Below are positions 7,044 through 38,675 of a DNA stretch of 64,000 nucleotides, one piece after another. A program made the translations under genes and the position numbers. Numbering within the stretch: the first letter of the stretch is position 1; each line of letters starts with the position of its first letter. The DNA comes from Thermodesulfobacteriota bacterium (GTDB lineage Bacteria > Desulfobacterota_D > UBA1144 > Nemesobacterales > Nemesobacteraceae): positions 992,001-1,056,000 of the forward strand of contig OZ241855.1 in NCBI GenBank assembly GCA_965202785.1, read 5' to 3'. A model generated the notes under the pieces. It made no database searches and was not told the origin of the DNA. It saw only the letters and a program-made list of their open reading frames with translations.

Positions 7044-7252
7044 ATAAATCAGTTTGACGGAGCTTGGTTTTCTCACTCATATGTCAGGGCTTCACAGGAA
7101 TCCGAGTTCGCAAAAACCCCTCAACGCTACCACCTGGGAATTAAACAAGCGGATGGCTTGAACGAGGCAGAACAAGCTTTTTTTGAGCATTGAACAACAT
7201 TTCCATAAACGGTACCGAAGTGATATGTCAAGAGTAAATAAAGCTGTCTGCT

Positions 7253-7897
7253 TTACCGGCCGCGCGTAAAGGTCCAGTACTGCAAGCAGGCCAACAATAT
7301 AAGGAGAGGGATACCGAGTTCTAGTATTTCCTCAATCACGCGCATTGGTGTCTTCACTTCGCTCGATAGGATTATTGCGAAATTCTCACGCAGGATTCGC
7401 GGAGCTGAGTCAAGCAACTTAGCGATCAGCATAACGAGCAGCGCTGCAGCAATTGTTAGCGAGTACCCGTATCGGCTGCGCAGTCCAGATACCAAATGTC
7501 TACCGTAGTTCGTCATATAACGGATCAAAGCATATACGCAGATCAGCAGCACAGCGCCTACTGCAATTCTTTCCACGAGCGGTATAGTAGGTTCTATGTA
7601 GTAATTGAGATTGTTGATTCTCAAGGAAGTCAGCCTACTGTGCATGTCAAGCTCACGAAGCACAAACAACAAGACTACAAAAGCCGAGTAGTATCGGAAT
7701 TTCCAGTCCCCTGAGGCGATAAACAAAAGATATGCGATCCCGCTGAGGTACAAAATGACGGTGAGGTTCTCTATCAAGTTGCCTTCCCGAGAAAGCCGTT
7801 CCACGGTGGCGCTATCCAGAAATATAGCCAGAAAGACGATAATCAAGAGACCTGTGATTACATAGAGAAAGAGAAATGGCTGACCCGTATTTTTCAT
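7253..7897 (-). CDS. Integral membrane hypothetical protein
   Basis: About 6 hydrophobic segments with intramembrane acidic motifs (EGNLIE, RELD, EEILEL). Confidence 0.65.
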   Translation of the reverse strand: MKNTGQPFLFLYVITGLLIIVFLAIFLDSATVERLSREGNLIENLTVILYLSGIAYLLFIASGDWKFRYYSAFVVLLFVLRELDMHSRLTSLRINNLNYYIEPTIPLVERIAVGAVLLICVYALIRYMTNYGRHLVSGLRSRYGYSLTIAAALLVMLIAKLLDSAPRILRENFAIILSSEVKTPMRVIEEILELGIPLLILLACLQYWTFTRGR

Positions 7898-7937
7898 AGA
7901 CCTTGGATTCAATTCACAAAGAAGACTGTAGGTTTTT

Positions 7938-18063: not shown

Positions 18064-18128
18064 TTCGGGGTTTAAATTAACTCAAATTGTTTGGTTTGCT
18101 TTTCACTATCTTAAGGAGGATTCTCGTA

Positions 18129-19121
18129 ATGAAGAATTTGAGTGTTAAATCGTGTTTTACGCTTTTTGCGATCGTTTGCGCGCTTGCTCTCGGTCCGGTC
18201 GCCTCTGCCCAGACGGTCACAGTTGACCAGGCCATACCTTCCTACACGAAGGTGACGGGTGTTTCGGGGAACATAGACAGCGTGGGTTCCGACACCATGA
18301 ACAACCTTATGACGTTCTGGTGCGAGGGATTCGCAAAGTTCTACCCCAACGTTAGATGCCAGATAGAGGGCAAGGGTTCGAGTACCGCTCCTCCGGCTCT
18401 GATAGCGGGGACTTCCCAGTTCGGACCCATGTCAAGAATGATGAAATCAAAGGAGGTTGACGAATTCGAAAAGCAGGCCGGCTACAAGCCGACCGCGGTT
18501 CCGACGTCGATTGACGCGCTTGCGGTTTACGTGAACAAGGATAACCCGATTGGCTGTCTCTCGATAAAGCAGGTAGACGCCATTTTCTCAAAGAACAGGA
18601 AATGCGGGGGTGGCTCCGATATTTCCACTTGGGGAACTGCGGGACTCGGTGGCGACTGGGCCGGGAAGCCGATAAGCGTCTACGGGCGAAACTCCGCGTC
18701 GGGCACCTACGGCTACTTCAAGAAGAAGGCGCTTTGCAAGGGCGACTACAAGGACACCGTTAAGGAGCAGCCCGGATCTTCCGCCGTCGTGCAGGGAATT
18801 ACCGAGGATCTTCAGGGAATCGGCTACAGCGGCATCGGATACAAAACATCCGGGGTAAAAGCGATCGAGCTTGCCAAGACTGTCGAGAAGGGTTGCTTCG
18901 GACCCGATCTTGCAAACGTAGTCAGCGGGAGCTATCCGCTCGGAAGGTACCTCTTTCTCTACGTTAACAAGAAGCCGAACGAAGCTCTTGATCCGCTTCG
19001 CCTCGAGTTCCTGAAGTACGTTCTTAGCCGGCAGGGACAGGAAATAGTCATAAAAGACGGATATCTGCCCTTGACCGCTGAGAAGGTTTCCGAGTTAAGA
19101 GTTCTTATAGGTGCGAAGTAG
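18129..19121 (+). CDS. pstS: Phosphate ABC transporter substrate-binding protein
   Basis: SVGSDTM, GSSTAPPAL, MSR, GRNSASGTYGYF; AAGGAGG SD. Confidence 0.95.
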   Translation: MKNLSVKSCFTLFAIVCALALGPVASAQTVTVDQAIPSYTKVTGVSGNIDSVGSDTMNNLMTFWCEGFAKFYPNVRCQIEGKGSSTAPPALIAGTSQFGPMSRMMKSKEVDEFEKQAGYKPTAVPTSIDALAVYVNKDNPIGCLSIKQVDAIFSKNRKCGGGSDISTWGTAGLGGDWAGKPISVYGRNSASGTYGYFKKKALCKGDYKDTVKEQPGSSAVVQGITEDLQGIGYSGIGYKTSGVKAIELAKTVEKGCFGPDLANVVSGSYPLGRYLFLYVNKKPNEALDPLRLEFLKYVLSRQGQEIVIKDGYLPLTAEKVSELRVLIGAK

Positions 19122-19148
19122 GTATACTATTATGGTTCCTTACGCGGA

Positions 19149-19173
19149 CGGATCCGGAAGTGTTTCGGGTCCG
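19149..19173 (+). other. Stem-loop downstream of pstS (possible mRNA stabiliser or attenuator)
   Basis: CGGATCCGGA / TTCGGGTCCG hairpin in the pstS-pstC spacer. Confidence 0.4.
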
Positions 19174-19257
19174 CCTACGTTTGGCCGTTTACCCCGGGGA
19201 GGTCGGATCTTAGGCCGTCTTTTTCGCATCTGATATCCCAGATGCAAGGTAACTTCA

Positions 19258-21552: not shown

Positions 21553-23161
21553 ACTCTGGAAAGCAGGCGACTCCTACATATGGATATCGGGACTTGCCCT
21601 CATGGTCACGCTAGTGATGATAGGGGGGCTTCTGTTCCTGATAGCCACAAAGGGTCTGGGCTCGATGTGGCCGGCGGACATAGGACGCTACGAGCTTAGA
21701 GACGGTTCTACTTACTTGGGGAAGTTTCGCGCGAGAGAATCCGTGCGGGGAGGGGACGGCGTGAGGGGCTCCGAGTTCCGCGTCAAGCTCAAGATAGGAA
21801 ACAGGGATGTCTACGGCCTTGACTTCAGGTGGATAGACGAGGCGGACATAGCGTCGCGCGACTATCCCAACGATGCGGTGGTCCTTGAGCGACGCGAGTG
21901 GGGAGATTACCACGGCTACTTAAAAGAGATAAGAAAAAACGGCGAAGTAATCCCGGGCGGGAATCCAGACGCTTTCTCGATGCTTCTGGGTCTGATACGC
22001 GACGCGAACAGGATACACGAGAGGATACTCAAGATAGAAAAAGGGGAGATAGGAGACATAAACTACGGAATCGAGCGGCAGCGTCTAAAGCTCCGCGGCC
22101 TTTCAGTGCGCGGCGAGGATAATCCGGCGAAGGAGGCCGAGTACCGCCTGAGAATAAGAGAGTACGAGCAGCGCTACGAGGCAAGCGAGTCGAAACTTGA
22201 AACACTCTATGCGGAGCTTTCGAGAAACGAGGTGGTGATGCTCTCAGCTGGTGGAGACGAGAAGGTAGTGCCGCTTGGAAAGATCGTCATGGCTCATCGC
22301 CCAAACGATATGGGATTTACGGCGAAAACCGGTTTTTACATAAAAAGATTCTGGGGATTTGTCTCCGATAACCCGAGGGAAGCCAATACTGAGGGTGGGA
22401 TATTCCCCGCCATTTTCGGCACGGTACTCATGGTGCTTATCATGAGCATAGTGGTCATGCCCTTCGGAATCGTAGCGGCGCTTTACCTGCGGGAATACGC
22501 CAGACAAGGAGTGATGGTGAGAGTAGTCAGAATATGCGTTAACAACCTTGCGGGTGTTCCCTCCATAGTGTTCGGGGTTTTCGGAGTGGGATTTTTTCTC
22601 TACGGAATAGGGGGCATAATCGACGCGGTGTTTTTCAAAGAGGCTCTCCCAAGCCCGACTTTTGGTACGGGAGGAATACTGTGGGCGTCGCTTACCCTCG
22701 CTCTCCTCACTGTTCCGGTGGTGATAGTTGCGACTGAGGAGGGACTCGCGGCAGTTCCGAGAAACATTAGGGAGGGGTCTCTTGCGCTCGGTGCCACAAA
22801 GTTCGAGACTATCTGGAAGGTTGTTATCCCGAGTGCGCTTCCGGCCATACTCACGGGTCTTATCCTCGCAGTCGCCCGGGCCACGGGGGAGGTGGCGCCA
22901 CTTATGATAACGGGGGTCGTTAAGCTTGCGCCTGATCTTCCCATAGACGGGCACTTTCCCTTTCTTCACCTTGAGAGAAAGTTCATGCATCTGGGATTCC
23001 ACATATACGATCTCGGCTTTCAGTCTCCAAACGCCGAGGCTGCGAAACCCATGGTTTTCATGACTGCATTTCTGCTCATACTGATAGTGGTTGTGCTTAA
23101 CATAACGGCGATAATAATAAGAAACAGGCTAAGGAAAAAATATGCGACTTCCGCGGTGTAG
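21545..23161 (+). CDS. pstA: Phosphate ABC permease
   Basis: PREANTEGGIFPAIFGT, NLAGVPSIVFG, ARATGEVAPL. Confidence 0.95.
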   Translation: MPKLWKAGDSYIWISGLALMVTLVMIGGLLFLIATKGLGSMWPADIGRYELRDGSTYLGKFRARESVRGGDGVRGSEFRVKLKIGNRDVYGLDFRWIDEADIASRDYPNDAVVLERREWGDYHGYLKEIRKNGEVIPGGNPDAFSMLLGLIRDANRIHERILKIEKGEIGDINYGIERQRLKLRGLSVRGEDNPAKEAEYRLRIREYEQRYEASESKLETLYAELSRNEVVMLSAGGDEKVVPLGKIVMAHRPNDMGFTAKTGFYIKRFWGFVSDNPREANTEGGIFPAIFGTVLMVLIMSIVVMPFGIVAALYLREYARQGVMVRVVRICVNNLAGVPSIVFGVFGVGFFLYGIGGIIDAVFFKEALPSPTFGTGGILWASLTLALLTVPVVIVATEEGLAAVPRNIREGSLALGATKFETIWKVVIPSALPAILTGLILAVARATGEVAPLMITGVVKLAPDLPIDGHFPFLHLERKFMHLGFHIYDLGFQSPNAEAAKPMVFMTAFLLILIVVVLNITAIIIRNRLRKKYATSAV

Positions 23162-23179
23162 TTTAATAGTGTATAAGTA

Positions 23180-24055
23180 GTGGAGGAAGATTTAATGCTG
23201 TCTGGAGAACCGATGGAGAGACAAGAATTCAGAGCCCCGGAGACAAACGGATCCGTCCCGGCTCCCAAGGCCAAGAAACTGAAGAGGGTAAAGGCCGTCC
23301 CCCACCCTCTGGTTGAAGTTGAGGACCTGAATCTTTTTTACGGCAAAAAGCAGGCCCTTCAGGATATCAACATGAACATCCCGAAAAACCGGGTAACGGC
23401 TTTTATAGGCCCTTCGGGCTGCGGCAAATCCACTCTGCTTCGCTGCTTTAACCGCTTAAACGATCTCATTGATGACTGCAGGATCGAAGGGGAGATATCG
23501 ATTAACGGGAAAAGCATATTCGATTCCGATGTTGACATCACCGACCTTAGAAAAAGGGTCGGCATGGTGTTTCAGAAATCAAACCCGTTCCCGAAATCGA
23601 TCTACGAGAACGTTGCCTACGGGGCTAGGATAGCAGGGATCAACAAGAAATCCGTTCTTGACGATATCGTGGAGAAAAACCTCAAGCGCTCTGCCCTCTG
23701 GGACGAGGTAAGCGACAGGCTTAACGACAGCGCCATGAGTCTTTCGGGGGGTCAGCAGCAAAGACTCTGCATCGCAAGAGCCATAGCTGTGGAGCCGGAC
23801 GTGCTTTTGATGGATGAGCCGTGCTCGGCACTTGATCCCATAGCGACTGCTAAGATAGAGGACTTGGTTACGGAGCTTAAAAGCAAGTTCACCATAGTGA
23901 TCGTGACCCACAACATGCAGCAGGCCGCCCGCGTTTCGGATTACACGGCCTTTATGTACATAGGCGACATAGTGGAGTTTGATACCACGGAGAAGATATT
24001 CCTTAATCCCGCCAAAAAGCACACCGAGGACTACGTCTCGGGCAAGTTCGGCTAG
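23180..24055 (+). CDS. pstB: Phosphate ABC ATP-binding protein
   Basis: [41 protein letters not shown]. Confidence 0.97.
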
Positions 24056-24066
24056 GGGGTGTTCCA

Positions 24067-24747
24067 ATGAGGCGATCACGGATGATAAAGTACGAAGAGG
24101 AACTCACGCTCCTTAACAGGAAGCTGCTTGAGATGGCGTCGCTTGTCGAGAGCCGCATCGCGAAGAGCATGAAGGCTCTTCGGGAAGGGAACATGATTTT
24201 GGCTCAGGAAGTGATCAGCACCGACGAGCAGATAAACGCGATGGAGATCGAGATAGATAACCTCTGCGTGAAGATCCTGGCCCTTTACCAGCCCGAGGCC
24301 AAGGATCTTCGTACCGTCACCATGATAATGAAGGTTAACAACGATCTTGAGAGAATAGGGGATCACGCCTCTAGCATCTCGCGGATGGCCATCTTCATGT
24401 CCGACTACCCGCCTATAAAACCGCTTGTGGACATTCCGAAGATGGCGGACAAGGCAATGGAGATGCTGAGGGAAAGCCTTGACGCGTTTATAAGAAGAGA
24501 TGCGAAACTCGCCGTGGAGGTCTGTCGCAAAGACGACGAGGTCGATAACTACGAGCCCCAGATAGTTAGGGAGCTCATAACCTTCATAATGTCGGATCCC
24601 TCAACGCTTAACCGGGCTCTTCGCTATATCTACGTCGCAAGGCACCTTGAGAGGGTGGCGGATCTCGCGACGAACATAGCGGAGAACGCCTACTACATAG
24701 CTACCGGAGAGATGCTTAAGCACCAGCACACTTCGGAGATGAACTGA
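24067..24747 (+). CDS. phoU: Phosphate signalling protein PhoU
   Basis: QPEAKDLR, DLERIGDHA, LERVADLATNIAE. Confidence 0.96.
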   Translation: MRRSRMIKYEEELTLLNRKLLEMASLVESRIAKSMKALREGNMILAQEVISTDEQINAMEIEIDNLCVKILALYQPEAKDLRTVTMIMKVNNDLERIGDHASSISRMAIFMSDYPPIKPLVDIPKMADKAMEMLRESLDAFIRRDAKLAVEVCRKDDEVDNYEPQIVRELITFIMSDPSTLNRALRYIYVARHLERVADLATNIAENAYYIATGEMLKHQHTSEMN

Positions 24748-24755
24748 CCGCCGTT

Positions 24756-26123
24756 TTACTGCTCGGTCCGTGGAAGCTCAACCGTAAAAGTGCTTCCCTC
24801 TCCTTCCGTGCTTCTAACTTCTATGGTTCCCCCGTGCTGTATGACTATGTGCTTCACTATGCTGAGGCCAAGCCCCGTCCCGCCTATTTCTCTTGAGCGG
24901 TTCTTATCCACCCTGTAGAACCTCTCGAATATCCTTTCTTGATGCTCGGGGGGAATTCCGATTCCGTTGTCTTCAACCTCTATGCGGAGGGTGCCGTTTA
25001 GGGTTGCGGCGCGTACAGACACCGAGCCATTTTGCGGGGTGTACTTGGCCGAGTTCTCAACAAGATTGATGATCATGCGCTCCACGAGGAATCTGTTTGC
25101 CCTGTAGGGGGGCATGCCGACCTCAATTTCAAGCGAGAGAGCGACTCTGTTTTTTGAGAAAAGAGAGCCAAGCGAGCCCACGGAGCGGACAATTGTTTCC
25201 TCTATGTCGATCTCTTCGTATCCTTTCCTTGAGTCCCGGGGGTCTGCCTCCCCGCTTTCAAGTTCCGAGAGCACCAGCAGGTCGGAGGCTATTGCTATCA
25301 GCCTGTCGGTGTTTTCCTCTATTATTTCGAGAAATTCCTTTTTCTCCTCGTCTGTGTCGTAGCTTTTGTCAAGGAGCGTTTCTATGTACCCCTTTATGGA
25401 CGTAAGCGGGGTTCTTAGCTCGTGGGAGACGTTCGCCACGAAATCCGCCTTTATCCGCTCAAGGTTCTTGAATTCCGTTATGTCGAAGATGACCACTATG
25501 ATTTCCCTGTAGCGGGGACTTACTCTGACGCTTACAAGATACGATCTTTCCTTGGGATAGAGAACGGAGATTTCCTGAGTAGCCGATTTCTTCTTTCGCT
25601 GCATGCGGGAGATGAGTCCCTGGAGGTCCGGGTTTCTTACGGTTTCCATGTAGGGGCGGCCGATTGCTGCGTCGTCTATCGTGAACATTTCCTTTGCGGC
25701 GTCGTTTACGAGCAGGAGGTTCTCTTCCCTTGATATCACTATAACCCCTTCCCTCATGGATTCGATTATGCTTTTGAGCTGGTTTCCCTCCCTCTCGGTT
25801 TCGCGCATCTGAAGGGAAATTCTCTCAGATAGCTCGCTTATGGAGATTGAGACTCCCGTTTCGAAGCCGCCTACCTTGCGCCCTGTCTTTCGGGCCTTTT
25901 TCTGTCGTTCCGGCAGAAGCTCAAGCGCCTTTGATATCCTCGAGAAGTCCTTTAGGACGTCTCTCTCGATGATACAGCAGAGGACGAATCCGAATACAAC
26001 GAATGCTGCTGTGTACGCGATGTAGCCTAGGGTCCCGCTGCCAGGGGAGAGCAGCACGGCAAGCAGCGCCGCGGCGGCGGCGAGGCAGAGCAGGTAGAGA
26101 AAATGTTTTCTGAATATCTTCAA
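24756..26123 (-). CDS. phoR: Sensor histidine kinase PhoR-like (2 TM, PAS, HisKA, HATPase)
   Basis: DFVANVSHELRTPLTSIKGY, IFERFYRVDK.RSR..GGTGLGLSIVKH; pho context. Confidence 0.88.
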   Translation of the reverse strand: MKIFRKHFLYLLCLAAAAALLAVLLSPGSGTLGYIAYTAAFVVFGFVLCCIIERDVLKDFSRISKALELLPERQKKARKTGRKVGGFETGVSISISELSERISLQMRETEREGNQLKSIIESMREGVIVISREENLLLVNDAAKEMFTIDDAAIGRPYMETVRNPDLQGLISRMQRKKKSATQEISVLYPKERSYLVSVRVSPRYREIIVVIFDITEFKNLERIKADFVANVSHELRTPLTSIKGYIETLLDKSYDTDEEKKEFLEIIEENTDRLIAIASDLLVLSELESGEADPRDSRKGYEEIDIEETIVRSVGSLGSLFSKNRVALSLEIEVGMPPYRANRFLVERMIINLVENSAKYTPQNGSVSVRAATLNGTLRIEVEDNGIGIPPEHQERIFERFYRVDKNRSREIGGTGLGLSIVKHIVIQHGGTIEVRSTEGEGSTFTVELPRTEQ

Positions 26124-26818
26124 ACCGGTTGGATCTCTTCTAGCTTGTAACCGATTCCTCTAACGGTCTTTATCATCTTGCCGGCGGAACCGAGTTTTTC
26201 TCTCAGGTTTTTTATGTGAACGTCTATAGTCCTGTCAAAAACCACCCTTTCATCTCCCCAGAGGGTCTTTCTTTTGAGCAGCTGATCACGGGTGAACACC
26301 TTTCCCTCCGCCTCCCCCAGAGTCTCAAGTATTCTGAACTCGGTTGTGGTAAGCTCGATTTTCCGCGAGTCAACCGAAACCTCGTAGCTTGCCGGGTCTA
26401 TTCTGAGAGAGCCGATCCGAAGCGCCCCGTCCCCAGAATTTTTCATCGCATATCTTCTCAAGAGGCTTTTTACCCTGGCGACGAGCTCCCGGGTCCGGAA
26501 GGGCTTTACTATGTAGTCGTCGGCGCCGAGTTCAAGACCCACTACTACGTCGGCCTCGGTGGATTTTGCTGTGATCATTATTATAGGTATTGACTCCGTC
26601 GAGGGTTTGCTTTTAAGTATCCTGCAGAGTTCAAGGCCGTCCATGCCGGGGAGCATGATGTCGAGCAGCACGAGATCGGGCGGGACGGAATTTATGTAGA
26701 GCAGAAAGTCCTTTCCGCTCTGAAAGGGTTTTACCTGGTACCCCTCGCGCTTTAAGTGATGGGTTATCAGGTTAAGTATGTCCTTTTCGTCATCTACTAC
26801 CGCTATGAGTTTTCTCAT
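26120..26818 (-). CDS. phoB: OmpR-family response regulator PhoB/PhoP
   Basis: VVDDE, LLDIMLPG, GADDYIVKPF, RTIDVHIKNLREKL, TVRGIGY. Confidence 0.88.
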   Translation of the reverse strand: MRKLIAVVDDEKDILNLITHHLKREGYQVKPFQSGKDFLLYINSVPPDLVLLDIMLPGMDGLELCRILKSKPSTESIPIIMITAKSTEADVVVGLELGADDYIVKPFRTRELVARVKSLLRRYAMKNSGDGALRIGSLRIDPASYEVSVDSRKIELTTTEFRILETLGEAEGKVFTRDQLLKRKTLWGDERVVFDRTIDVHIKNLREKLGSAGKMIKTVRGIGYKLEEIQPV

Positions 26819-29028: not shown

Positions 29029-30214
29029 CCGGAAATACAGCTACCCTGATACGGGAGGTCATTTCGGAGACTTCGGCGGCCGCTACGTCTCAGAAACCCT
29101 GATGCCCGCTCTGATTGAGCTCCAAAGGGCTTACGAGGAAGCCGCAGCTGACGAGACTTTTCACGAGGAGATTGATTACTACCTGAAGCAGTACGCAGGA
29201 AGGCCCACTCCGCTTTATTACGCCCGTGCGATGACAGAGAGTCTCGGAGGCGCCAAGGTTTACCTTAAAAGAGAGGATCTTGCCCACACTGGCGCGCACA
29301 AGATAAATAACACGATAGGTCAGGGGGTTCTCTGCGGGAGGATGGGCAAAGACAGGATAATAGCTGAAACCGGAGCGGGACAGCATGGGGTTGCCACGGC
29401 TACTGTTGCGGCGCTTTTGAACAAGGAATGCGTGATATACATGGGGGAGGAGGACACGAAACGCCAAGAGCTTAATGTTTTCCGTATGAAGCTTCTGGGT
29501 GCTGAGGTAAGGCCCGTGGTCTCGGGCACGAAAACACTCAAAGACGCCATGAACGAGGCCATGAGAGACTGGGTTACGAACGTGAGGAACACCTTTTACA
29601 TAATAGGAAGTGTCGCCGGTCCCCATCCCTACCCCATGATGGTAAGGGATTTTCAATCCGTGATCGGGCATGAGGCGATAGAGCAGATACTCGCCGCGGA
29701 AGGAAAGTTCCCCGACACCTTGGTTGCCTGCGTTGGGGGCGGCTCAAACGCCATGGGTCTTTTCTTCCCCTTCATAGAGGAATCCGGGGTAAGGAAGATC
29801 GGTGTGGAGGCGGCGGGCCATGGTCTTGAGAGTGGCCTTCACTCCGCGACCATAACTGCGGGCTCGGTAGGGGTTCTTCACGGAAGCAAAACCTACCTGC
29901 TCCAGGACGAAGACGGCCAGGTAAAGGGAGCCCATTCCGTTGCCGCCGGCCTTGACTACCCTGGCGTGGGTCCCGAGCATTCGTATTTCCAAGACGCGGG
30001 CGAGGTCGATTACGTTTCTGTAACGGACGAAGAAGCGCTCTCGGCGTTTTCCTATCTCTCGGAAGTAGAGGGAATAATACCCGCGCTTGAGACTGCCCAC
30101 GCAATAGCACACGTGCGCAAAATCGCTCCGTCCATGTCTCCAGAGCAGATTATAGTTATCTGTCTCTCCGGCAGAGGGGATAAAGACATACATACCGCTT
30201 CCTCTCTTATATGA
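29015..30214 (+). CDS. trpB: Tryptophan synthase beta chain
   Basis: [37 protein letters not shown]. Confidence 0.98.
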
Positions 30215-30253
30215 AGCGATTCGGACTGACCGGTTTTTCTGGTTTTTCTCCCC

Positions 30254-30293
30254 TGTCAACCCGCTTGACAATACCCATACGCGCGTATATAAA
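30254..30293 (+). promoter_or_regulatory. Internal sigma70 promoter upstream of trpA
   Basis: TTGACA(30265)-N17-TATAAA(30288). Confidence 0.7.
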
Positions 30294-30376
30294 GCTTCCG
30301 AAGGTTGGAGGTTCGTTTTTATTCTGTTTGCTTGCGATTTCTGCGTTTCCAGGCTGCCGGCTTCTTATAAAAGCAC

Positions 30377-31177
30377 ATGGGAAGAATAAAGGAAAAATTC
30401 CACGAACTTCGGGAGAAAAACAAAGCGGCTTTAATCTGCTATGTTACCGCCGGGGACCCTGATGTCGACTTGACCGAGCAGATCATTGATCACATGGAGG
30501 CAAGCGGTGTTGACATGGTGGAAATCGGCATACCCTTTTCGGACCCCATGGCGGACGGGCCGGTAATCCAGGCTGCTTCGGAACGGGCTCTTGCTAACTC
30601 GACATCCGTTTCCGACGTGCTTTCGCTTGTTAAAAGGATAAGGTCCCGCTCGGATATTCCCGTGATACTTTTCGGCTACTACAACCCTTTTTTCTCCTAT
30701 GGCACCGAGCGATTCGCACGCGACGCCCGCGAGGCGGGAGCGGACGGAGTTCTGGTCGTTGATCTTCCACCCGAGGAAGCTGGGGAACTGAGCATCCATG
30801 TTGAGCAGGAAGGGCTTGACCGAATCTTTCTGCTTGCCCCTACGAGTACCGAAGAAAGGATAGAGATGGTGTCGCAAAACGCCTCGGGTTTTATCTACGT
30901 GGTTTCGGTTACCGGGGTCACAGGAGCGCGTCCTGACATGGACTACGATCTCGAGGATCTGGTGGGAAGAATAAAGCGCCGCTCGGAGCTTCCCGTCGGG
31001 GTAGGTTTCGGGGTTTCCTCCGCGCGTCAGGCCGCCGCGATAGCCTCTTTTTCCGACGCTGTTATCGTGGGAAGCGCCCTTGTGAGAATAATCGAGAGCG
31101 GTGGAGAGGAGAGGCAGGAAATGCTGGGTAGGATTTCAAGCTTTACGGAGGAACTTAGCGCCGCCTGCTACAGGTAG
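30377..31177 (+). CDS. trpA: Tryptophan synthase alpha chain
   Basis: EIGIPFSDPMADGPVIQ, DLPPEE, GVTG, VGFG, IVGSA. Confidence 0.97.
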   Translation: MGRIKEKFHELREKNKAALICYVTAGDPDVDLTEQIIDHMEASGVDMVEIGIPFSDPMADGPVIQAASERALANSTSVSDVLSLVKRIRSRSDIPVILFGYYNPFFSYGTERFARDAREAGADGVLVVDLPPEEAGELSIHVEQEGLDRIFLLAPTSTEERIEMVSQNASGFIYVVSVTGVTGARPDMDYDLEDLVGRIKRRSELPVGVGFGVSSARQAAAIASFSDAVIVGSALVRIIESGGEERQEMLGRISSFTEELSAACYR

Positions 31178-31198
31178 ACGTTCTGAATTCCAGGTACG

Positions 31199-32515
31199 AT
31201 GAGTACGAACGGGGAAAGGCGATATATGTTCATCGGAGAATTTGACATTCTCCTGATGAGTCTTTTTAAGAACAGGGGCCAGGTAACAGAACTTGATTCT
31301 CCTGATGATGCGCTTAATCAGAAGGGAGTCTTTACGCTTATAGTTGTAAACAACGAATTTGCAACCAAGGAGTTTCTGAGATCTCTTGCTTACAGTTATC
31401 CCGAGAGCCCGATAGTTGTTTCCGCCGACGGTGAGCGGCGCAAGGACGGCTATATAGCGAGATATGTGAAATTCGATGAAGTTGCAACCAACCAGATATC
31501 CTTTGAGGAGAAGCTTGCGAGATCCGATATCTCCGTAAGACTGATAAGAGAGGTTCACCGCGACGCGAAGAAGCTTCTCATACTCGTTCATAACCAGCCT
31601 GACCCGGATGCGATCGCAAGCGCCATGGCCCTTCGGACCCTCCTTAGAAGAAACAAGAAAACGGCGACCATAGGATATCTGGGGGAGAGAATTTCAAGAC
31701 CCGAGAACGTGGCCATGGTGGAGCTTATGGACATAGACTTGCAGGTGATTTCCCAAAATGACATAAAAAATTTCAATTCCATAGCACTTGTTGATGTGCA
31801 GCCTTCTTATTTTAGAGGGGAGATTACAGATGTCGATTCGGTGATCGACCATCATCCGATAACCCCCGAGTGCGACGCGAAATTCACCGAGATAAGTTCC
31901 GAAGAAGGAGCCACCGCGACGATCATGACCCGGCTCCTCAGGGCCGCCCAGGTTGAGATTTCCGCAAAACTTTCAACCGCGCTTCTCTACGGAATAAAAA
32001 CCGACACCATGATTCTCAACAGGGGTGCGGATCTTGACGACCTAGAAGCGTTCACATATCTCTACAATCAGGCCGACTTGGGTTTGCTCAGGAAAATAGA
32101 GTCCAAAAACCTGTATTCAGAAGAGATCAAGCATTACGGCCAGGCGCTCTCAAAACACTGGATAAATGACGGAATAATTTTCATGAACTTGGGAAGGATA
32201 GAAAAGGAGCATCTTATTGCCCAGGTGGCTGACATGGGGATGAAGGTGGAGGGGGTCAGATGGTCTGTTGCCTTTGGGATTGTTTCCGGTTCCCATGTAG
32301 TTATGTCCGTAAGAAACAGCGGGTCCGTCAAGAGTGCCGGGCGTCTGCTTTTCGAGCTTTTTGACGAAATAGGAAGCGCCGGAGGACACAGATCCTACGC
32401 CAAGGCCGTGATTCCCATACAAGAAGTGAGGCAGCTCATAGGAAAGACCTCGCGCAAGAACATAGAGCAGTGGATCGATAGGGTATTTAGAACCGCAACT
32501 GCTCAGAACGTCTGA
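31199..32515 (+). CDS. DHH/DHHA1 phosphoesterase with extra N-terminal domain
   Basis: HNQPDPDAIASA, IALVD, VIDHH, GIKTDT, SVR, AGGH. Confidence 0.88.
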   Translation: MSTNGERRYMFIGEFDILLMSLFKNRGQVTELDSPDDALNQKGVFTLIVVNNEFATKEFLRSLAYSYPESPIVVSADGERRKDGYIARYVKFDEVATNQISFEEKLARSDISVRLIREVHRDAKKLLILVHNQPDPDAIASAMALRTLLRRNKKTATIGYLGERISRPENVAMVELMDIDLQVISQNDIKNFNSIALVDVQPSYFRGEITDVDSVIDHHPITPECDAKFTEISSEEGATATIMTRLLRAAQVEISAKLSTALLYGIKTDTMILNRGADLDDLEAFTYLYNQADLGLLRKIESKNLYSEEIKHYGQALSKHWINDGIIFMNLGRIEKEHLIAQVADMGMKVEGVRWSVAFGIVSGSHVVMSVRNSGSVKSAGRLLFELFDEIGSAGGHRSYAKAVIPIQEVRQLIGKTSRKNIEQWIDRVFRTATAQNV

Positions 32516-32585
32516 GGACGGAAGCCAACATTTTTTCCGCTGAACTTGGTTTTTCCCTTCCGCTTTTAAAGCTATATTAATTCCA

Positions 32586-32654
32586 ATGATAGCAAGTACC
32601 ATGTTAATCAAAGTGGATTTGCGATGGGCAGCTTGGTTTCCCAAGAGAAGATGA
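32586..32654 (+). CDS. Putative 22-aa leader peptide MIASTMLIKVDLRWAAWFPKRR
   Basis: ATG 7 nt after TATATT (32573); its stop overlaps the next ATG (ATGA 32651-32654). Confidence 0.35.
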   Translation: MIASTMLIKVDLRWAAWFPKRR

Positions 32655-33679
32655 AACTCAAGACGGCAATTCTGGGAGTTACGGGTTATGTCGGCCAGCA
32701 GCTTCTTTCCCTTCTGGCGCGCCACCCTAACATTGACCTGCGTGTGCTTACGTCTGAGAAGTTCTCGGGCAGGAGGGCGGATGAGGCGTTTCCGCATCTT
32801 TTGGGCTACTCGGATCTTATCCTAAGCCCAGTATCGAAAATTCCTGACTCAGAACGTGTGGATCTTCTGTTTTCCTGTCTTCCCGGGGGAACTTCTTGTG
32901 TTTTCGTGCGTAAGTTCCTTGAGAAAGGAGTAAGGGTGATCGATCTTAGCTCCGACTTAAGATTCCCTGACCCTGCTGACTACTCCCGGGCTCACGGCGT
33001 GGCGCCGCGCTTTCCCGAGCTTCTCTCACAGGCGGTCTACGGACTTAGCGAGCTTAACCGCGAGAAGATAAAAAACGCCCCGTTAGTCGCTAATGCGGGT
33101 TGCTACTCTACCTGCGTTTCTCTCGCCGTAGTGCCTTTTCTTCAAGAGCATGAAGTGGAACCCGATATTATAGTGGACGTAAAATCTTCTTTTTCGACTT
33201 CGGGACGAGCGCCGAAACCCGAGAGTCACTACACCGAGGTAAAAGAGGACGTATCCGCTCGTGGAGCTGGAGGGGATGACCAAAAACATGAGATTCTTCG
33301 CGTGCTCTACGATTTCTGCGGCGTGAAGAAAAAGCTCCTTTTCTTCAATACACGTATTCCGGTTAAGAGGGGGATAATGGCCACTTCGTATCTCAGGCTC
33401 CGCTCGGAGATCTCCCCCGATGAGGTAAGGGAATTTTACTCCGGATTCTACAGAGATGATGCTTTCGTCCGGGTCTGCGACGGGCCCCCTGGGATAGCGT
33501 CTGTTTCCGGTTCCAACTATATCTCTTTAGGTTTCTGTGAGAGAGAAGGGCACCTTGTCATCGTATCGGTTCTTGACAATCTAATGAAGGGGGCCGCGGG
33601 CCAGGCCGTTCAGAACATGAATATAGTCTTTGGATTTCCTGAGGACACTGGACTCGGACAAGTTCCCCTTTTCCCGTGA
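32651..33679 (+). CDS. argC: ArgC-family (N-acetyl-gamma-glutamyl-phosphate reductase-like) protein with divergent active site
   Basis: GVTGYVG, IDLSSDLR, AVYGLSE, ANAGCYST, DNLMKGAAGQAVQNMN; lacks SGxSGAG and HRH motifs, so the symbol denotes family only. Confidence 0.75.
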   Translation: MKLKTAILGVTGYVGQQLLSLLARHPNIDLRVLTSEKFSGRRADEAFPHLLGYSDLILSPVSKIPDSERVDLLFSCLPGGTSCVFVRKFLEKGVRVIDLSSDLRFPDPADYSRAHGVAPRFPELLSQAVYGLSELNREKIKNAPLVANAGCYSTCVSLAVVPFLQEHEVEPDIIVDVKSSFSTSGRAPKPESHYTEVKEDVSARGAGGDDQKHEILRVLYDFCGVKKKLLFFNTRIPVKRGIMATSYLRLRSEISPDEVREFYSGFYRDDAFVRVCDGPPGIASVSGSNYISLGFCEREGHLVIVSVLDNLMKGAAGQAVQNMNIVFGFPEDTGLGQVPLFP

Positions 33680-33686
33680 CGGGGCG

Positions 33687-35132
33687 ATGAGAAACTACTG
33701 CGAAATACTGTATTCAAATCTGGAGCGAAATCCCCGGGGAGCGGCCGTCTGGTATCAAGGAGAAATCTACAGTTACGCGCAGCTCTGCGACTTTGTTGAC
33801 GGTTTTTCCTCGTTTCTTTCCAAGCTGGGGGTGTCACGGGGGGACAAGGTATGCGTTTTCCTTCCCAATTCACTTTCTCTTGCCGTATCCGTTTTTTCGA
33901 TAGCAAGACTTGGAGCCGCCTGCGTTCCAATTGATAGCGCCTGCGGAACCGAAGAGATGAGACACTACCTTGAGTTCTCGAAGCCGCTCCTGATCGTTAC
34001 AGACGAATCTCTTGCGCATACCGTGAATACCGTTTCCGGAGGCATAACCACTGTTTGCGTGACCCGGGACAACTTTCTGGGTGACGCTCCCGCGGATCTG
34101 CCTGGAAATCATCCTTCGGAGAAAGCCATCTACCTTTTTTCCACGGGCTCAACCGGAAAGCCCAAGTGCGTTGCGAGAAGCCACACCAACATGATCGCCC
34201 TTGCCCAGAATCACACGGCCACAATAAACTGGGATAGCGGGGACAGAATTCTTTTTTCGATTCCAATATCGCATACCTATGGTCTCGGGAACTTCGTAAG
34301 CGCCGTAAGCGTCGGGGCCTGCTGTTATTTCCTCCCGAGGTTTACCAGAAAAGAGGTTCTCGGCGTGCTGGAAGAAGAACAGATAACCGTCTTTCCCGCC
34401 GTTCCATTCATGCTAGAGACTCTCGCTCGAAGCGTGAGCCGTGGTGATTATGATTTCCCGCAGCTAAAGCATGTTATTTCCGCCGGGGCTCCCTTGCCCG
34501 AGGAGACCTTTTTTTCCTTCCACAGGGCTTTCAGTGTCTACCCCCGCCAGCTCTACGGTTCATCTGAGACCGGGGTGATGGCAATTAATATCGCGGAAAA
34601 TATAGAGGAGAAGCGTCTTTCAGTCGGAGTACCGGTTGAAAACGTTGTTATAAAGGTGGTTTCGGAAACCGGGAACGAACTTCCAGTCGGGCAGATCGGC
34701 GAGATAATAATAAGGAGCCCTTCCATGACAGACGGCTACGTTGATTTTCCGGAAGAGACCAAGAGGGTTTTTGTCGACGGTTTTTACCACACCGGGGATC
34801 TCGGAATGTTCGACGGCGACGGGTATCTTTTCATTCGCGGAAGAAAGAAGCTTTTCATCAACATTTCTGGGAACAAGGTTGACCCGTTCGAAGTTGAAAA
34901 CCTGCTTATGACTCACGGGAAAATAACGGAAGCTGCCGTGATAGGAACCCCTGGAGCCCAGGGCAGAGAAGAGGTGAAGGCCTTTATCGTTGCGGATGGA
35001 CTCACAAGGCGGGAGGTTGTCGATTTCTGCAGGGGAAAAATTTCCGACTACAAGATCCCCGCGAAGATGGAATTTGTGGACGCACTTCCGAGAAGCCCGG
35101 CAGGCAAAGTGCTTAGGGAGAAGCTTAAGTGA
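33687..35132 (+). CDS. Class I adenylate-forming enzyme (acyl-CoA/acyl-ACP ligase)
   Basis: FSTGSTGKPK, YGSSETG, YHTGDLG, GRKK..INISGNKVDPFEVE, LPRSPAGKV. Confidence 0.92.
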   Translation: MRNYCEILYSNLERNPRGAAVWYQGEIYSYAQLCDFVDGFSSFLSKLGVSRGDKVCVFLPNSLSLAVSVFSIARLGAACVPIDSACGTEEMRHYLEFSKPLLIVTDESLAHTVNTVSGGITTVCVTRDNFLGDAPADLPGNHPSEKAIYLFSTGSTGKPKCVARSHTNMIALAQNHTATINWDSGDRILFSIPISHTYGLGNFVSAVSVGACCYFLPRFTRKEVLGVLEEEQITVFPAVPFMLETLARSVSRGDYDFPQLKHVISAGAPLPEETFFSFHRAFSVYPRQLYGSSETGVMAINIAENIEEKRLSVGVPVENVVIKVVSETGNELPVGQIGEIIIRSPSMTDGYVDFPEETKRVFVDGFYHTGDLGMFDGDGYLFIRGRKKLFINISGNKVDPFEVENLLMTHGKITEAAVIGTPGAQGREEVKAFIVADGLTRREVVDFCRGKISDYKIPAKMEFVDALPRSPAGKVLREKLK

Positions 35133-35389
35133 CCGAGCGAAAAGAAGTTCTTGGGGAAAAGATAAAGCGGCTTGTCATCGGCAAGTTCAATCTCGACATC
35201 AGTCCCCAGGATATATCGGCTGAGCAGTCGCTGATCGAACTTGGAGTTGGCGTCGATTCCGTTTCGACGCTCGAATTCATTATGGAGCTTGAAGAGGAAT
35301 TTGGGGTCTCAATTGACGAGTCCGAGATTCCCCCCGGAATTCTTGAGACCGTTGAGAGCCTCTCTGAGTTTATTCGCTCGCTTAAGTGA
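35129..35389 (+). CDS. Acyl/aryl carrier protein
   Basis: Acidic 86-aa protein with GVDSVSTLE phosphopantetheine motif and LEEEFGVSI; GTGA overlap with ligase stop. Confidence 0.88.
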   Translation: MTERKEVLGEKIKRLVIGKFNLDISPQDISAEQSLIELGVGVDSVSTLEFIMELEEEFGVSIDESEIPPGILETVESLSEFIRSLK

Positions 35390-35398
35390 TTTGTCCTT

Positions 35399-37138
35399 TT
35401 ATTTCTTGTAGAGGTTGGTTATCGGGAAGCGGCGGTCCTTTCCGAAAGCAAGCGACGTTATTTTTACCCCCGGGGCGCTCTGCCTTCTTTTATATTCGTT
35501 CATATTTACCATTCTGATTATTTTCCGCACTACGCTTCTTTTCTCCCCGAGCTTTACTATCTCTTCGACCCCGAGGCCGTCTTCCACGTAGGCTTTCAGT
35601 ATCCTGTCGAGCGTGTCGTATTCGGGAAGCGAGTCAGTATCTTTCTGGTCTGGGCGAAGTTCGGCTGAAGGGGGCTTTTCGATCACAGATTTCGGTATTA
35701 TTTGTTTTCCCCGCAGGCGGTTGTAATAATGAGAGAGTTCGTAAACCATGGCCTTGGGCACATCCTTTATCACCGCAAAGCCCCCTGACATGTCTCCGTA
35801 GAGGGTAGAATAGCCGACCGCGAGTTCACTTTTGTTCGATGTAGCAAGCACTAGCCACCCGAACTTGTTTGAAAGCGCCATGAGGATATTTCCTCTTATC
35901 CTCGCCTGAATGTTCTCTTCCGTTACGTCTGAATCCATTCCAGAGAAAAACTCGGCGAACATTTCCTCGTAGCATCTGAAAGTTTCTTCTATTGGAATGC
36001 TGAGAAGCTCGATTCCGAGATTGCGCGCGAGCTTTTTCGCGTCGGTGACGCTTCCCTTTGAACTGTACATTGAAGGCATGGAAACTCCGACGACTTTTGA
36101 GGGTCCGACGGCTTCTGTGGCAATGACGGCTGTAAGCGAAGAATCTATCCCGCCGCTTAACCCGAGCACCACCTTTTCAAAGCTGTTTTTTCTTATGTAA
36201 TCCCCGGTGCCGAGGACAAGTGCCGAGAAGGCGCATTTTAGAGGGTCTTCTGAAGGGTCGGCTTGTTTTCCCGGGATTTTCACTTTGCGCTTTGTTTTCG
36301 CAGGCTTAAGCGTGAATGTTTCCAGCTGGCTTTCCTCGAAGGAAAGCTCGTATCTCGTTTTTCTTATGGTCGGAGTGTTAAGCCTTGATTTGTAAACTCT
36401 CTCGGCGTTAACGTCGCAGACCAGCAGGTCTTCTTCGAAGTGTCGTGCGGTGGCGACGATCTTGCCTTTTTCGTCTATGAACATGCTGTTTCCGTCAAAC
36501 ACAAGCTCGTCCTGCCCGCCGACTATGTTGCAGTAGGCTATTATTGTGTTGTAGTCAACCGCCCTTGTGGCGAGCATCCTCTCCCTCGCCAGAGGTTTTC
36601 CCATGTAGTAGGGTGAAGCCGAGAGGTTGAATATGATCTGGGCGTTTCCTAACAGAACCTGGCTTCTTATGGGTTCTCCTGGGTACCATATGTCCTCGCA
36701 GATCGTGACCCCAAAAGTCATTTTCCCCATTGAGTAAACGGGAAACCGTCTTTCTGACTGGAAATAGCGGTTCTCGTCGAATACTCCATAGTTGGGAAGG
36801 CGAAGTTTGTGGTATACGTCTATTATCTCTTTTTTCTGGATTACGGCTGCTGAGTTGAATATGTCGTCCTTTTTATCGACAAAGCCCACTATGACGACCA
36901 TGTTATCCGGACAGTGCTTCTTTATTTCGTCAAGCGCCCGCATGTTGTCGTTGATGAATTCGGTTTTAAGAAGAAGATCCTCGGGAGGATAGCCGGTCAC
37001 GGCAAGCTCGGGGAAACACAAAATGTCTATATCGAGACCTCGCGCCGCCTCGATCACTTCGGTTATTTTCTTCGTGTTTCCGGTTATGTCCCCCACGCTC
37101 GGGTTGATCTGGGAGAGCCCGGCCCGTAACTGTTTCAT
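35399..37138 (-). CDS. nadE: Glutamine-dependent NAD+ synthetase
   Basis: FPEL..TGYPPEDL, LPNYGVFDE, ICEDIW, GLSGGIDS, ENIQARIRG, PPSAELRPDQKD. Confidence 0.96.
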   Translation of the reverse strand: MKQLRAGLSQINPSVGDITGNTKKITEVIEAARGLDIDILCFPELAVTGYPPEDLLLKTEFINDNMRALDEIKKHCPDNMVVIVGFVDKKDDIFNSAAVIQKKEIIDVYHKLRLPNYGVFDENRYFQSERRFPVYSMGKMTFGVTICEDIWYPGEPIRSQVLLGNAQIIFNLSASPYYMGKPLARERMLATRAVDYNTIIAYCNIVGGQDELVFDGNSMFIDEKGKIVATARHFEEDLLVCDVNAERVYKSRLNTPTIRKTRYELSFEESQLETFTLKPAKTKRKVKIPGKQADPSEDPLKCAFSALVLGTGDYIRKNSFEKVVLGLSGGIDSSLTAVIATEAVGPSKVVGVSMPSMYSSKGSVTDAKKLARNLGIELLSIPIEETFRCYEEMFAEFFSGMDSDVTEENIQARIRGNILMALSNKFGWLVLATSNKSELAVGYSTLYGDMSGGFAVIKDVPKAMVYELSHYYNRLRGKQIIPKSVIEKPPSAELRPDQKDTDSLPEYDTLDRILKAYVEDGLGVEEIVKLGEKRSVVRKIIRMVNMNEYKRRQSAPGVKITSLAFGKDRRFPITNLYKK

Positions 37139-37209
37139 CTGAAAATTATACTTGTAACCGCAGGATATTTCGAGAATTCTACGGCTTGCGGGCTTAAGGG
37201 AAACTCTGA

Positions 37210-37815
37210 TTAAGCAAGTCTAAAAGACAGGTAAATGATATTTGCGACGAAGTGAAAGAAAACACTTGACCAGATGTTTCCGGTTCTCATGTATAGATAT
37301 CCCATGACAAGCGAAGGGAAAAAGGTGAGGGCGTTCTGCGCGCAGTAACCCCCGCCGGAGAACACGCAGATCACGAGAAGATGCGCCAAGGCGAAAAGCA
37401 CGCTTGCCGCGATAATCGCGCCCCATCCGCCGCCGAGAGTTCTCTGAAGGTATCCCCTGAAGAAAAATTCCTCGGGAAACGCGATAACTAAAAGGTGTGT
37501 GAGCACAAAAAGCGCCGTCGGTTCAACGAACTTAACCGTTTTTCCCAAGTAGGCTGAAAGAAGGTATAGGAAGACTAGGTAAGAAAAAAGAACCGCAATG
37601 GAAATTACCGCTCCCCGAACCAGCCCCCGCGGATCGAACCTCAAAACGTCCACCGCACCGCGATCAAGCAGAAACGGGACCCAGAGCATGACCCCCGCCG
37701 AGAGCAAAAGGGCGTACTCACGGCCAATCGTAGCCTTTGAGATTATTATTGTTGCTATCACCACCCCGTAGGCGGCAAACGGTATCGCAAGATTTTTCGA
37801 AAGAAGTTGTTTCAC
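37210..37815 (-). CDS. CPBP family glutamic-type intramembrane protease
   Basis: EEFFFRG, FALAH, HFVAN motifs. Confidence 0.88.
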   Translation of the reverse strand: MKQLLSKNLAIPFAAYGVVIATIIISKATIGREYALLLSAGVMLWVPFLLDRGAVDVLRFDPRGLVRGAVISIAVLFSYLVFLYLLSAYLGKTVKFVEPTALFVLTHLLVIAFPEEFFFRGYLQRTLGGGWGAIIAASVLFALAHLLVICVFSGGGYCAQNALTFFPSLVMGYLYMRTGNIWSSVFFHFVANIIYLSFRLA

Positions 37816-37889
37816 GGAACCGGGTTTTTTCTTGAGCCGAGGTTCCGACTATAATACTTGAATATGGCGCAAAAGGAGTGTTTGTCTGC

Positions 37890-38675
37890 ATGGAAATCTC
37901 GAGAATAAGAAAACATCTTCAGGCGGAAAAGGTCGGCGACCAGCTTTTTGTCTTCAATGAGGTAGGTTCCACAAATGACGTCCTGCGTGAACTCATAGCG
38001 GAAGGCTCAGACGCGGATGGAACGGTGCTGGTTTCCGATTCGCAGACCGGGGGTAGGGGACGGCTTGGGCGAAAGTGGTTATCTCCCGGGGGAGTGAATC
38101 TTTATCTCTCCGCTTTGTTTCGCCCGGAGGTCTCCCCGCAGAAATCTTCCGTCTTTACCTTTCTTGCATCCTGCGCCCTTGTCGAGGTTTTCTCAGCTTA
38201 CGGAGTAGACGCCAAGATAAAGTGGCCGAACGATATTCTTGTCGGAGGGAAGAAAATTTCGGGGGTGCTCACGGAACTTGGGACCTCCGACGGCACTGTG
38301 GATTACCTCGTGATCGGCATCGGGGTTAATCTCAATTTGCCCGAGGAATTCATCCGCCGTGAAATGGAGGATATTTCGGAGAAAACTACCTCTCTTTCTA
38401 TACTCCTCGGAGAGGAAGTTAACAGAGAGAAGTTCTGCGCGGAGCTTATTAACGCCCTTGACCGGTTCTACGGGGAGTTTCGCCGCCGCGGGACACAGGT
38501 GATTGTAGATATGTGGGTCGAGAGGTGGGGGTTTATCGGAAAGGAGATATCCGTAGATGTCTTGGGGGAGATTATCAGCGGGGTTGTGGAGCGCGTCGAC
38601 GCAAACGGATTTCTTTATCTGAGAACAGATGTAGGCGACCTTCGCAAGGTGATTGCGGGAGATACCGTTTTTTAG
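37890..38675 (+). CDS. birA: Biotin-protein ligase, class I (no HTH)
   Basis: STN, QTGGRGRLGRKW, KWPNDI, KISGVL, GIGVN. Confidence 0.95.
   Translation: MEISRIRKHLQAEKVGDQLFVFNEVGSTNDVLRELIAEGSDADGTVLVSDSQTGGRGRLGRKWLSPGGVNLYLSALFRPEVSPQKSSVFTFLASCALVEVFSAYGVDAKIKWPNDILVGGKKISGVLTELGTSDGTVDYLVIGIGVNLNLPEEFIRREMEDISEKTTSLSILLGEEVNREKFCAELINALDRFYGEFRRRGTQVIVDMWVERWGFIGKEISVDVLGEIISGVVERVDANGFLYLRTDVGDLRKVIAGDTVF

Follow-up and report, generated by a model that had tools for sequence, protein, structure and literature searches.

ArgC, the reductase of the arginine pathway, carries a His-Arg-His (HRH) motif that binds the phosphate and the carbonyl of its substrate, as a passage of PMC10170137 describes it. 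The second histidine of that motif, His219 in the enzyme of Mycobacterium tuberculosis (MtArgC), is proposed in a passage of PMC12041015 to be the base that activates the catalytic cysteine, and to hold the phosphate together with the first histidine and an arginine. The related LysY reduces an acyl phosphate made by LysZ on a substrate that is amide-linked to the carrier LysW, and it keeps the histidine (His209) and a small residue after the cysteine (PMC12041015, in the part that treats LysY). Here we describe three adjacent genes, called the trio below, that encode an ArgC-like protein, an adenylate-forming ligase of the ANL family and a stand-alone acyl carrier protein (ACP), and that lie in a 64,000-nucleotide stretch of a Thermodesulfobacteriota genome (contig OZ241855.1; this whole stretch is the window in what follows). 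From the comparisons set out here, we give a probability of about one half to the reading that the trio is a discrete carboxylic-acid reduction system, in which the ligase, the ACP and the reductase would together turn an acid into an aldehyde.

Acids are reduced to aldehydes by other arrangements as well. Carboxylic acid reductases and fungal Lys2 are fused adenylation-thiolation-reduction (A-T-R) enzymes, and their R domain is of the short-chain dehydrogenase type. In the LuxE/LuxC pair, a separate ATP-dependent activating protein hands the acyl group to a cysteine of a separate reductase, and the aldehyde is released. The passages of PMC12041015 that bear on these enzymes place LuxC in the aldehyde dehydrogenase superfamily, and describe carboxylic acid reductases and Lys2 as reducing the thioester directly, without an acyl-enzyme cysteine. 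The same passages describe an archaeal malonyl-CoA reductase that derives from aspartate-semialdehyde dehydrogenase, acts on CoA thioesters through a cysteine acyl-enzyme and keeps the activating histidine (PMC12041015); the semialdehyde-dehydrogenase fold can therefore use thioesters.

The trio occupies positions 32651-35389 of the window on the + strand, as three same-strand open reading frames (ORFs) in the following order.

32651-33679, + strand: ArgC-like paralog, 342 aa, with the GxxGxxG NAD(P)-binding motif and Cys151 kept, Gln211 in place of the catalytic histidine and Cys76 in place of alanine
33687-35132, + strand: ANL-family adenylate-forming ligase of the acyl-CoA-ligase type, 481 aa, with its core motifs intact
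35129-35389, + strand: stand-alone acyl carrier protein, 86 aa, with a GVDSV phosphopantetheine site

The first ORF opens at ATG 32624; the start codon at 32651 was picked from an alignment of orthologs, in all of which the M-K/R-L-K found there is the start. Its TGA stands at 33677-33679, a gap of 7 bp follows before the ligase ATG at 33687, and the ligase stop codon (TGA, 35130-35132) overlaps the GTG start of the ACP at 35129 by 4 bp, as GTGA. The tight packing, the gap and the overlap reported in an earlier, preliminary description of this stretch can thus be read directly in the window sequence. The motifs that it quoted, GVTGYVG (GxxGxxG), ANAGCYST, DNLMKGAAGQA, KSSFSTSGR, ARGAGGDDQKHEI and FFNTRIP, are all present in the translation, and the last three align with SGxSGAGR, HRHxPEI and FTPHL of solved ArgCs. 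In relatives, versions of the trio stretch are matched by contigs from four RNA libraries, with a likeness of 90-96%; these contigs run across the gene junctions, and in one library two of them span the whole trio stretch. Such contigs are no proof of transcription or of a single transcript.

By family, the ArgC-like protein is a semialdehyde dehydrogenase (Pfam PF01118 and PF22698) that scores 325.9 bits against the argC model TIGR01850, above the cut-off of 233.6 and over model positions 2-345 of 345. Its best match among solved structures is 2cvo (E 9.2e-69, residues 11-351). A canonical argC is nevertheless encoded elsewhere in the same single-contig 1.64-Mb genome (C1:596646-597671), where it reaches 432.8 bits against the 325.9 of the window copy, and argB and argJ are likewise encoded elsewhere, above their cut-offs; all three are among the genes whose presence the preliminary description had wished to see checked. 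Because the genome holds this separate canonical set, the paralog is surplus to arginine synthesis, a pathway that is complete without it, and is not the organism's arginine-pathway ArgC. A scan of 45 window ORFs (7 plus 38, the latter at E <= 1e-25) gave no further arg gene, as had been stated before, nor was one seen in the trio neighbourhoods inspected, whether of the window or of its relatives. We considered whether the trio might be a bypass for a missing step in proline, arginine or beta-alanine synthesis and rejected this, since every gene searched for was found: proA, proB, proC, panD, panC and lysA are present above their cut-offs, as are argB and argJ, so that the trio fills no gap. 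The presence of lysA also makes an aminoadipate-type lysine route unnecessary.

What sets the paralog apart is its active site, which we compared residue by residue between 30 trio-linked proteins and 49 canonical ArgCs. The catalytic cysteine, Cys151, which canonical ArgC carries in the motif NPGCY(P)T and the window protein in ANAGCYST, is found in every protein of both groups. The trio-linked proteins share with canonical ArgC a full-length homology, the dinucleotide motif (GxTGYxG in 30/30), Arg104 and Arg186 (both in 30/30), and the C-terminal DNLxKGAxGQAxQNMN, which reads DNLxKGAxGQAVQNMN in all 30. They differ from it, besides standing outside the arginine pathway, in the residues that canonical ArgC uses around the substrate. 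At position 211, the third residue of HRH, glutamine is found in 30/30 trio-linked proteins and histidine in 49/49 canonical ones. The arginine of HRH (position 210, Arg in 45/49 canonical proteins) has given way to a mixture whose commonest members among the 30 are Asp (8), Asn (8), Ser (5) and Gly (2), and the first histidine is kept in 19 of 30; the window protein reads D-D-Q. Position 204, Tyr in 49/49 canonical proteins, is Tyr in only 4/30, and position 235, Leu in 47/49, is most often Arg (10 of 30), Thr (9), Asn (4) or Gln (3). New residues are fixed at other places: Cys at position 76 in 30/30 (Ala in 44/49 canonical proteins), which gives Ser-Cys at 75-76; Ser-Glu-Lys-Phe at 35-38, each in 29 to 30 of 30 (variable in canonical ArgC, with Ser-Arg-Ser-Tyr commonest); and Ala (30) followed by Pro (28 of 30) at 187-188, a pair that is variable in canonical ArgC. 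Cys151 is followed by Tyr in 20 of the proteins, by Phe in 9 and by Cys in 1. The clade-wide changes are thus histidine to glutamine, alanine to Cys76, and the loss of a Tyr, an Arg and a Leu that are invariant in canonical ArgC.

Two of these positions belong to the channel that receives the substrate's side chain. In the ArgC of D. acetiphilus (DaArgC), S178, G182, A183, Y203 and L233 line the N-acetylglutamyl side-chain channel, and G182V alone lowers the native activity about 1000-fold, according to the relevant passages of PMC10170137. Mapped by motif alignment, the window protein has S179, T183, S184, R204 and R235 at these five positions; two of the five, Tyr203 and Leu233 of DaArgC, are replaced clade-wide, and threonine stands at the Gly182 position in the window protein. 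The earlier statement that motifs lining the N-acetylglutamyl-phosphate site differ from canonical ArgC is therefore borne out, for the phosphate-binding residues as for those of the side-chain channel.

The same cannot be said of the "HRH-to-DDQ charge reversal" as the defining change. The preliminary description had inferred a different substrate from it and had asked whether relatives conserve it, but DDQ, STSGR and FNTR are confined to part of the window's genus. Most other trio members read xHxQK, SGxGR and xxH at these places, a distribution that makes the charge reversal a late, local change and the replacement of histidine by glutamine the event that defines the clade. The cofactor site has been kept. 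A passage of PMC10170137 gives Ser-Glu-Thr as the MtArgC site for the 2'-phosphate of NADPH, and Ser-Glu at that site and the cofactor-contacting Arg186 are invariant in 30/30 trio-linked proteins. A preference for NADH, considered on account of Glu36, was dropped because MtArgC has its Ser-Glu-Thr for the NADPH 2'-phosphate at this very place.

In a maximum-likelihood tree of 79 ArgC-type proteins, which included every second one of 80 loci listed from outside the phylum, the trio-linked copies form one clade with a Shimodaira-Hasegawa-like approximate likelihood ratio (SH-aLRT) support of 99, and the canonical ArgCs of the phylum itself form its sister group, with a support of 85. The branching within it largely follows families. 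By this topology, the gene stems from a duplication of argC in the ancestor of this Dadabacteria-like order and has since been passed on mostly by vertical descent; near-identical proteins stand in a public source under the name "Candidatus Dadabacteria". A profile built from 32 trio proteins and searched against 1.84 billion representative proteins returned 20553 proteins at E <= 0.001. In this search, which is blind to distant variants that score below canonical ArgCs, a residue other than histidine at the catalytic position was found in only 10 of the best 150 matches, and these 10 fill most of the top ranks. Those of them that cover the sites carry both Ser-Glu-Lys-Phe and Ser-Cys, and in its best BLASTP segment each of the 10 reaches at least 50% identity to trio proteins from within this phylum, so the trio-type ArgC looks like a small, bounded family.

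The three genes have stayed together beyond what chance would explain. Among the loci inspected (37 from the phylum and one named record), ArgC-like gene, ligase and ACP stand in that order at 30, from 7 families, and the outer neighbours change. In a first set the trio was present at 17 of the 20 best-match loci, the other three being the canonical argC of genomes whose second match (L058-L060) has it. A second set of 14 loci from 14 other genomes had the trio at 8 and lacked it at G032, G019, G020, G029, G031:C75 and G013:C31; G031 carries it on another contig, and in G013 a ligase ortholog begins at base 113 of contig C104. The named record, L078 ("Desulfobacterota bacterium AH_259_B03_O07"), has the trio too. 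It is the only one of the 80 loci listed outside the phylum to do so, the other 79 being canonical ArgC, in a search that used generic ArgC motifs and says little on absence elsewhere.

Of the 120 genomes of the phylum, 81 carry a ligase ortholog at a threshold of E <= 1e-80. By family these are 32/36 and the window's own genome in f1, 14/15 in f2, 2/2 in f3, 2/5 in f4, 1/1 in f5, 0/6 in f6, 2/2 in f7, 27/33 in f8 and 0/19 in f9. By comparison of coordinates, the ligase adjoins an ArgC-like match in 74 of the 81 (33/33 of the same genus and 41/48 of the others); for the remaining 7 there was no ArgC-like entry on the same contig among the matches listed, or the contig was cut. At one locus, L044 (G076:C30), the ligase is split into overlapping ORFs (7036-7962 and 7839-8525), by either a frameshift or an assembly error, and because of this split G076 falls below the ligase threshold; its ArgC-like gene and ACP are intact, and the former lies within the trio-linked clade of the tree. 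Between copies from the same genus, 27 of the ArgC-like gene and 28 of the ligase, the median pairwise ratio of nonsynonymous to synonymous substitution rates (dN/dS) comes to 0.13 for each gene, and no copy carries an internal stop. The trio is a conserved unit under purifying selection, and the linkage that the preliminary description had wanted tested in relatives is conserved.

The ligase matches PF00501 with 237.2 bits and PF13193 with 58 bits. Its best NCBIfam model is PRK06187 (343.9 against a cut-off of 476), and all 25 models listed stay below their cut-offs. The solved structures closest to it are of several kinds: an adenylation domain of a nonribosomal peptide synthetase (NRPS; 201 bits), FadD13 (199 bits), and feruloyl- and oxalate-CoA ligases (193 bits). 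The protein is compact, at 481 aa, and 29 orthologs show little or no variation in its motifs STGSTGKPK, YGSSETG, TGDLG, GR and PxxxGK. By our reading of the motif, the stretch that corresponds to the place of the alpha-amino-binding aspartate in NRPS domains is IPISHTYG, as in acyl-CoA ligases, and activation of an amino acid was set aside for that reason. The ACP matches PF00550 with 37.3 bits and, as its best NCBIfam match, the cispentacin ACP (41.6 against a cut-off of 80). The DS motif noted at the outset lies in GVDSV, and its Asp43 and Ser44 are invariant in 26 orthologs. The genome holds four PP-binding domains, with the trio ACP distinct from the acpP-like one, and two phosphopantetheinyl transferases (PPTases). 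Judged by these motifs, the parts of the trio look functional. About 170 kb from the trio, the genome also encodes a type I polyketide synthase of 3463 aa (C1:1194490-1206946) with two ketosynthase (KS) and two acyltransferase (AT) matches, a dehydratase (DH), a methyltransferase, an enoylreductase (ER), a ketoreductase (KR) and an ACP, flanked by a stand-alone ACP, a PPTase of the Sfp type and an alpha/beta hydrolase.

In the mechanism that we propose, the ANL ligase would adenylate a carboxylic acid and transfer it to the phosphopantetheine arm of the trio's own ACP, which would hold it as a thioester. The ArgC-fold protein would then take the acyl group onto Cys151 by thiol-thioester exchange, and the acyl-enzyme would be reduced with NAD(P)H and the aldehyde released. 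With a thioester as donor there would be no acyl phosphate to bind, so that the HRH motif, with its roles in phosphate binding and cysteine activation, could have become dispensable and been replaced, although the cysteine and the whole cofactor site stayed. The residues that replace those of the channel are polar or charged, not hydrophobic, which makes a small polar acid more probable as the substrate than a long fatty acid. A predicted complex of the ArgC-like protein with the ACP has a median score of 0.36 (runs 0.23, 0.44 and 0.36), against 0.00 for the best of three controls; at least 85% of contacts are common to the runs, and the pLDDT (predicted local distance difference test) of the partners is at least 79. 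The mark that it passes is reached by 116 of 157 solved complexes and 2 of 215 mismatches, and at scores of 0.60 or lower only by 18 of the 157 and by both mismatches. The model that the preliminary description had called for thus passes, and lends weak support to the pairing.

Against this background, each of the systems described above resembles the trio in part. LysY (PDB 5EIO, 5EIN; sequence match E 5.1e-41) is a reductase of the ArgC fold that acts on a carrier-bound substrate, as the preliminary description had pointed out, and its carrier is a small acidic protein; unlike LysY, the trio has a phosphopantetheine ACP, an ANL ligase, glutamine for histidine in 30/30 and Tyr or Phe after the cysteine in 29/30. 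No protein of LysW, LysX or LysZ type was found in the window with Pfam and NCBIfam, or with Pfam among 29 neighbouring ORFs of six relatives' loci. What stands of the comparison is an ArgC-fold homolog that goes with a carrier; with no LysW/X/Z neighbours, an aromatic residue after the cysteine and the histidine gone, the likeness to LysY is one of analogy only. The A-T-R enzymes share the domains PF00501, PF13193 and PF00550 with the trio, and adenylation, a phosphopantetheine thioester and release of an aldehyde with NADPH are what we propose here too. They are single polypeptides, however, whereas the trio distributes these domains over three proteins and has as its sole reductase one of the semialdehyde-dehydrogenase fold (PF01118, PF22698), which would depend on a cysteine.

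The archaeal malonyl-CoA/succinyl-CoA reductase (PDB 4DPK/4DPL) belongs to the same superfamily as the ArgC-like protein, with a weak sequence match (E 1.7e-06), but it is not derived from ArgC, works with CoA and not with ACP, and keeps the histidine that is glutamine in the trio clade. LuxC and LuxE, like the trio, place acid activation and a cysteine reductase on separate proteins; LuxC lacks the ArgC fold, and there is no ACP. In the literature on Dadabacteria, on ArgC homologs and paralogs and on ACP, judged at overview level, we found no system described that couples an enzyme of the ArgC fold to a ligase and an ACP. As a somewhat tentative extension of the acid-reduction reading, the trio may represent a third, independently evolved route from acid to aldehyde, in which an acyl-S-ACP is reduced through a cysteine without the catalytic histidine by the product of an argC duplicated in one bacterial order, giving a small polar aldehyde for core or envelope metabolism.

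Several observations count against an acid-reducing trio. The nearest curated model of the ligase is a subfamily of fatty-acid CoA ligases, below its cut-off, and loading of CoA instead of ACP is compatible with the sequence. The phosphate-binding arginine, R104 in the window protein, is still invariant, and the loss of the only known cysteine-activating base could mean that redox catalysis has been lost altogether. At a complex score of 0.36, most passes are false unless the pairing is already likely. No further enzyme gene is conserved beside the trio in the neighbourhoods inspected, and no consumer of an aldehyde is linked to it. Finally, the trio is missing throughout f6 (0/6) and f9 (0/19) and from the complete single-contig genomes G019, G089, G026, G028 and G029, so it is dispensable and has been lost several times.

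These points feed three other explanations. The ArgC-like protein might work in the opposite direction, as an acylating aldehyde dehydrogenase that passes an acyl group from Cys151 to holo-ACP, with the ligase making the same acyl-ACP and an acyltransferase elsewhere. The thioester-forming direction is thermodynamically the easier one, and the want of a linked aldehyde-consuming enzyme would no longer be puzzling. The cysteine-thioester chemistry of the superfamily is also reversible, and acylating aldehyde dehydrogenases are among its members, as passages of PMC12041015 have it. Sequence does not tell the two directions apart, yet two parallel entry routes in one small operon would be less economical than one linear pathway, and no acyltransferase is linked to the trio either, so that we consider this direction unlikely. 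Quite unlikely, in our view, is that the paralog has left redox chemistry, to become a cysteine-dependent acyl-transfer or thioesterase-like enzyme or a non-catalytic partner of the ligase and the ACP. The replacement of histidine by glutamine in 30/30 and the loss of the canonical-invariant Tyr, Arg and Leu would fit such a fate, and superfamily branches without catalytic residues exist (PMC12041015, in the passages cited). Cys151, GxTGYxG, the Ser-Glu of the 2'-phosphate site and Arg186 are nonetheless invariant in 30/30, under a dN/dS of 0.13, and a complete cofactor site that has been kept argues for redox chemistry.

That the protein is a plain ArgC isozyme, as its score above the argC cut-off might suggest, is very improbable: the HRH motif is gone, the side-chain channel is altered, with Thr where DaArgC has Gly182, and the genome holds a canonical argC that scores higher. 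The adjacency of ligase and ACP has also been held across 7 families in which other neighbours vary, with the 7-bp gap and the 4-bp overlap. Taken together, the separate arginine pathway, the conserved gene unit and the changed substrate residues make a ligase-ACP-reductase logic the most economical reading of the trio. The core of the preliminary interpretation, an ArgC homolog outside the arginine pathway in a conserved trio with changed substrate residues, stands on this footing, and its emphasis on DDQ as the defining change falls away.

Upstream of the trio lie the following features.

31199-32515, + strand: DHH-family phosphoesterase, 438 aa, matching PF01368 with 44.4 bits; a frequent upstream neighbour of the trio
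32516-32650, + strand: spacer 5' of the trio, 135 bp, a possible promoter region

The spacer varies among relatives by small indels, as expected of non-coding DNA. An Rfam scan of 30000-38000 gave no match at E <= 1, hence no known RNA element in the spacer, which rules out a riboswitch or other known RNA upstream of the trio. A scan of 31000-36000 for promoters and terminators gave counts of 2 against a shuffle mean of 3.6 and of 5 against 5.6, with no usefully placed site, and reported no promoter-like site on the + strand. The DHH phosphoesterase has an N-terminal extension of about 120 aa without a family match, and a weak likeness to family II pyrophosphatases and NrnA. The order TrpA, DHH phosphoesterase, ArgC-like protein, ligase, ACP recurs at 5/5 divergent same-genus loci and at L039, L041, L047, L048 and L074, and is missing at most f8 loci; TrpA and the DHH phosphoesterase precede the trio at f1, f2 and f4 loci, and at other loci this place is taken by PolA or aspartokinase and a LeuA-like synthase.

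On the other side, NadE occupies the place after the ACP in the window. At eight loci outside the genus a convergent gene of 235-246 aa follows the ACP, with a weak Pfam match to a MerR helix-turn-helix in 3/5 scanned copies; examples are L040:3423-4148, L042:3500-4216, L041:3573-4280, L047:3387-4127 and L051:8955-9674. In a single case, L040 (G015), the gene of a zinc-type alcohol dehydrogenase (7111-8331, - strand) immediately precedes the ArgC-like gene and shares its strand; the enzyme could act on an aldehyde product. Farther away in the window, a phosphate uptake and regulation cluster (pstS, pstC, pstA, pstB, phoU, phoR-like and phoB) spans 18087-26818; its PstC (764 aa) and PstA (538 aa) ORFs are unusually long, with family matches confined to their C-terminal parts. 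At 59508-62177 (+ strand), a protein of 889 aa unites YfmH-like and YfmF-like M16 peptidase matches in one chain.

We rate the trio, on its sequence features, as a candidate for carrier-protein-dependent acid reduction on a different reductase fold. If this is true, it would be a new enzyme architecture for the ATP-dependent reduction of acids to aldehydes, a reaction sought in biocatalysis, and an enzyme of primary metabolism would have passed from acyl phosphates to thioesters through the loss of the residues that bound phosphate and served as base. Trio-type ArgC paralogs also point to a systematic annotation error. For the organisms themselves, the trio points to a metabolite pathway that may have been retained in most of an uncultured lineage, one that is widespread and both marine and host-associated.

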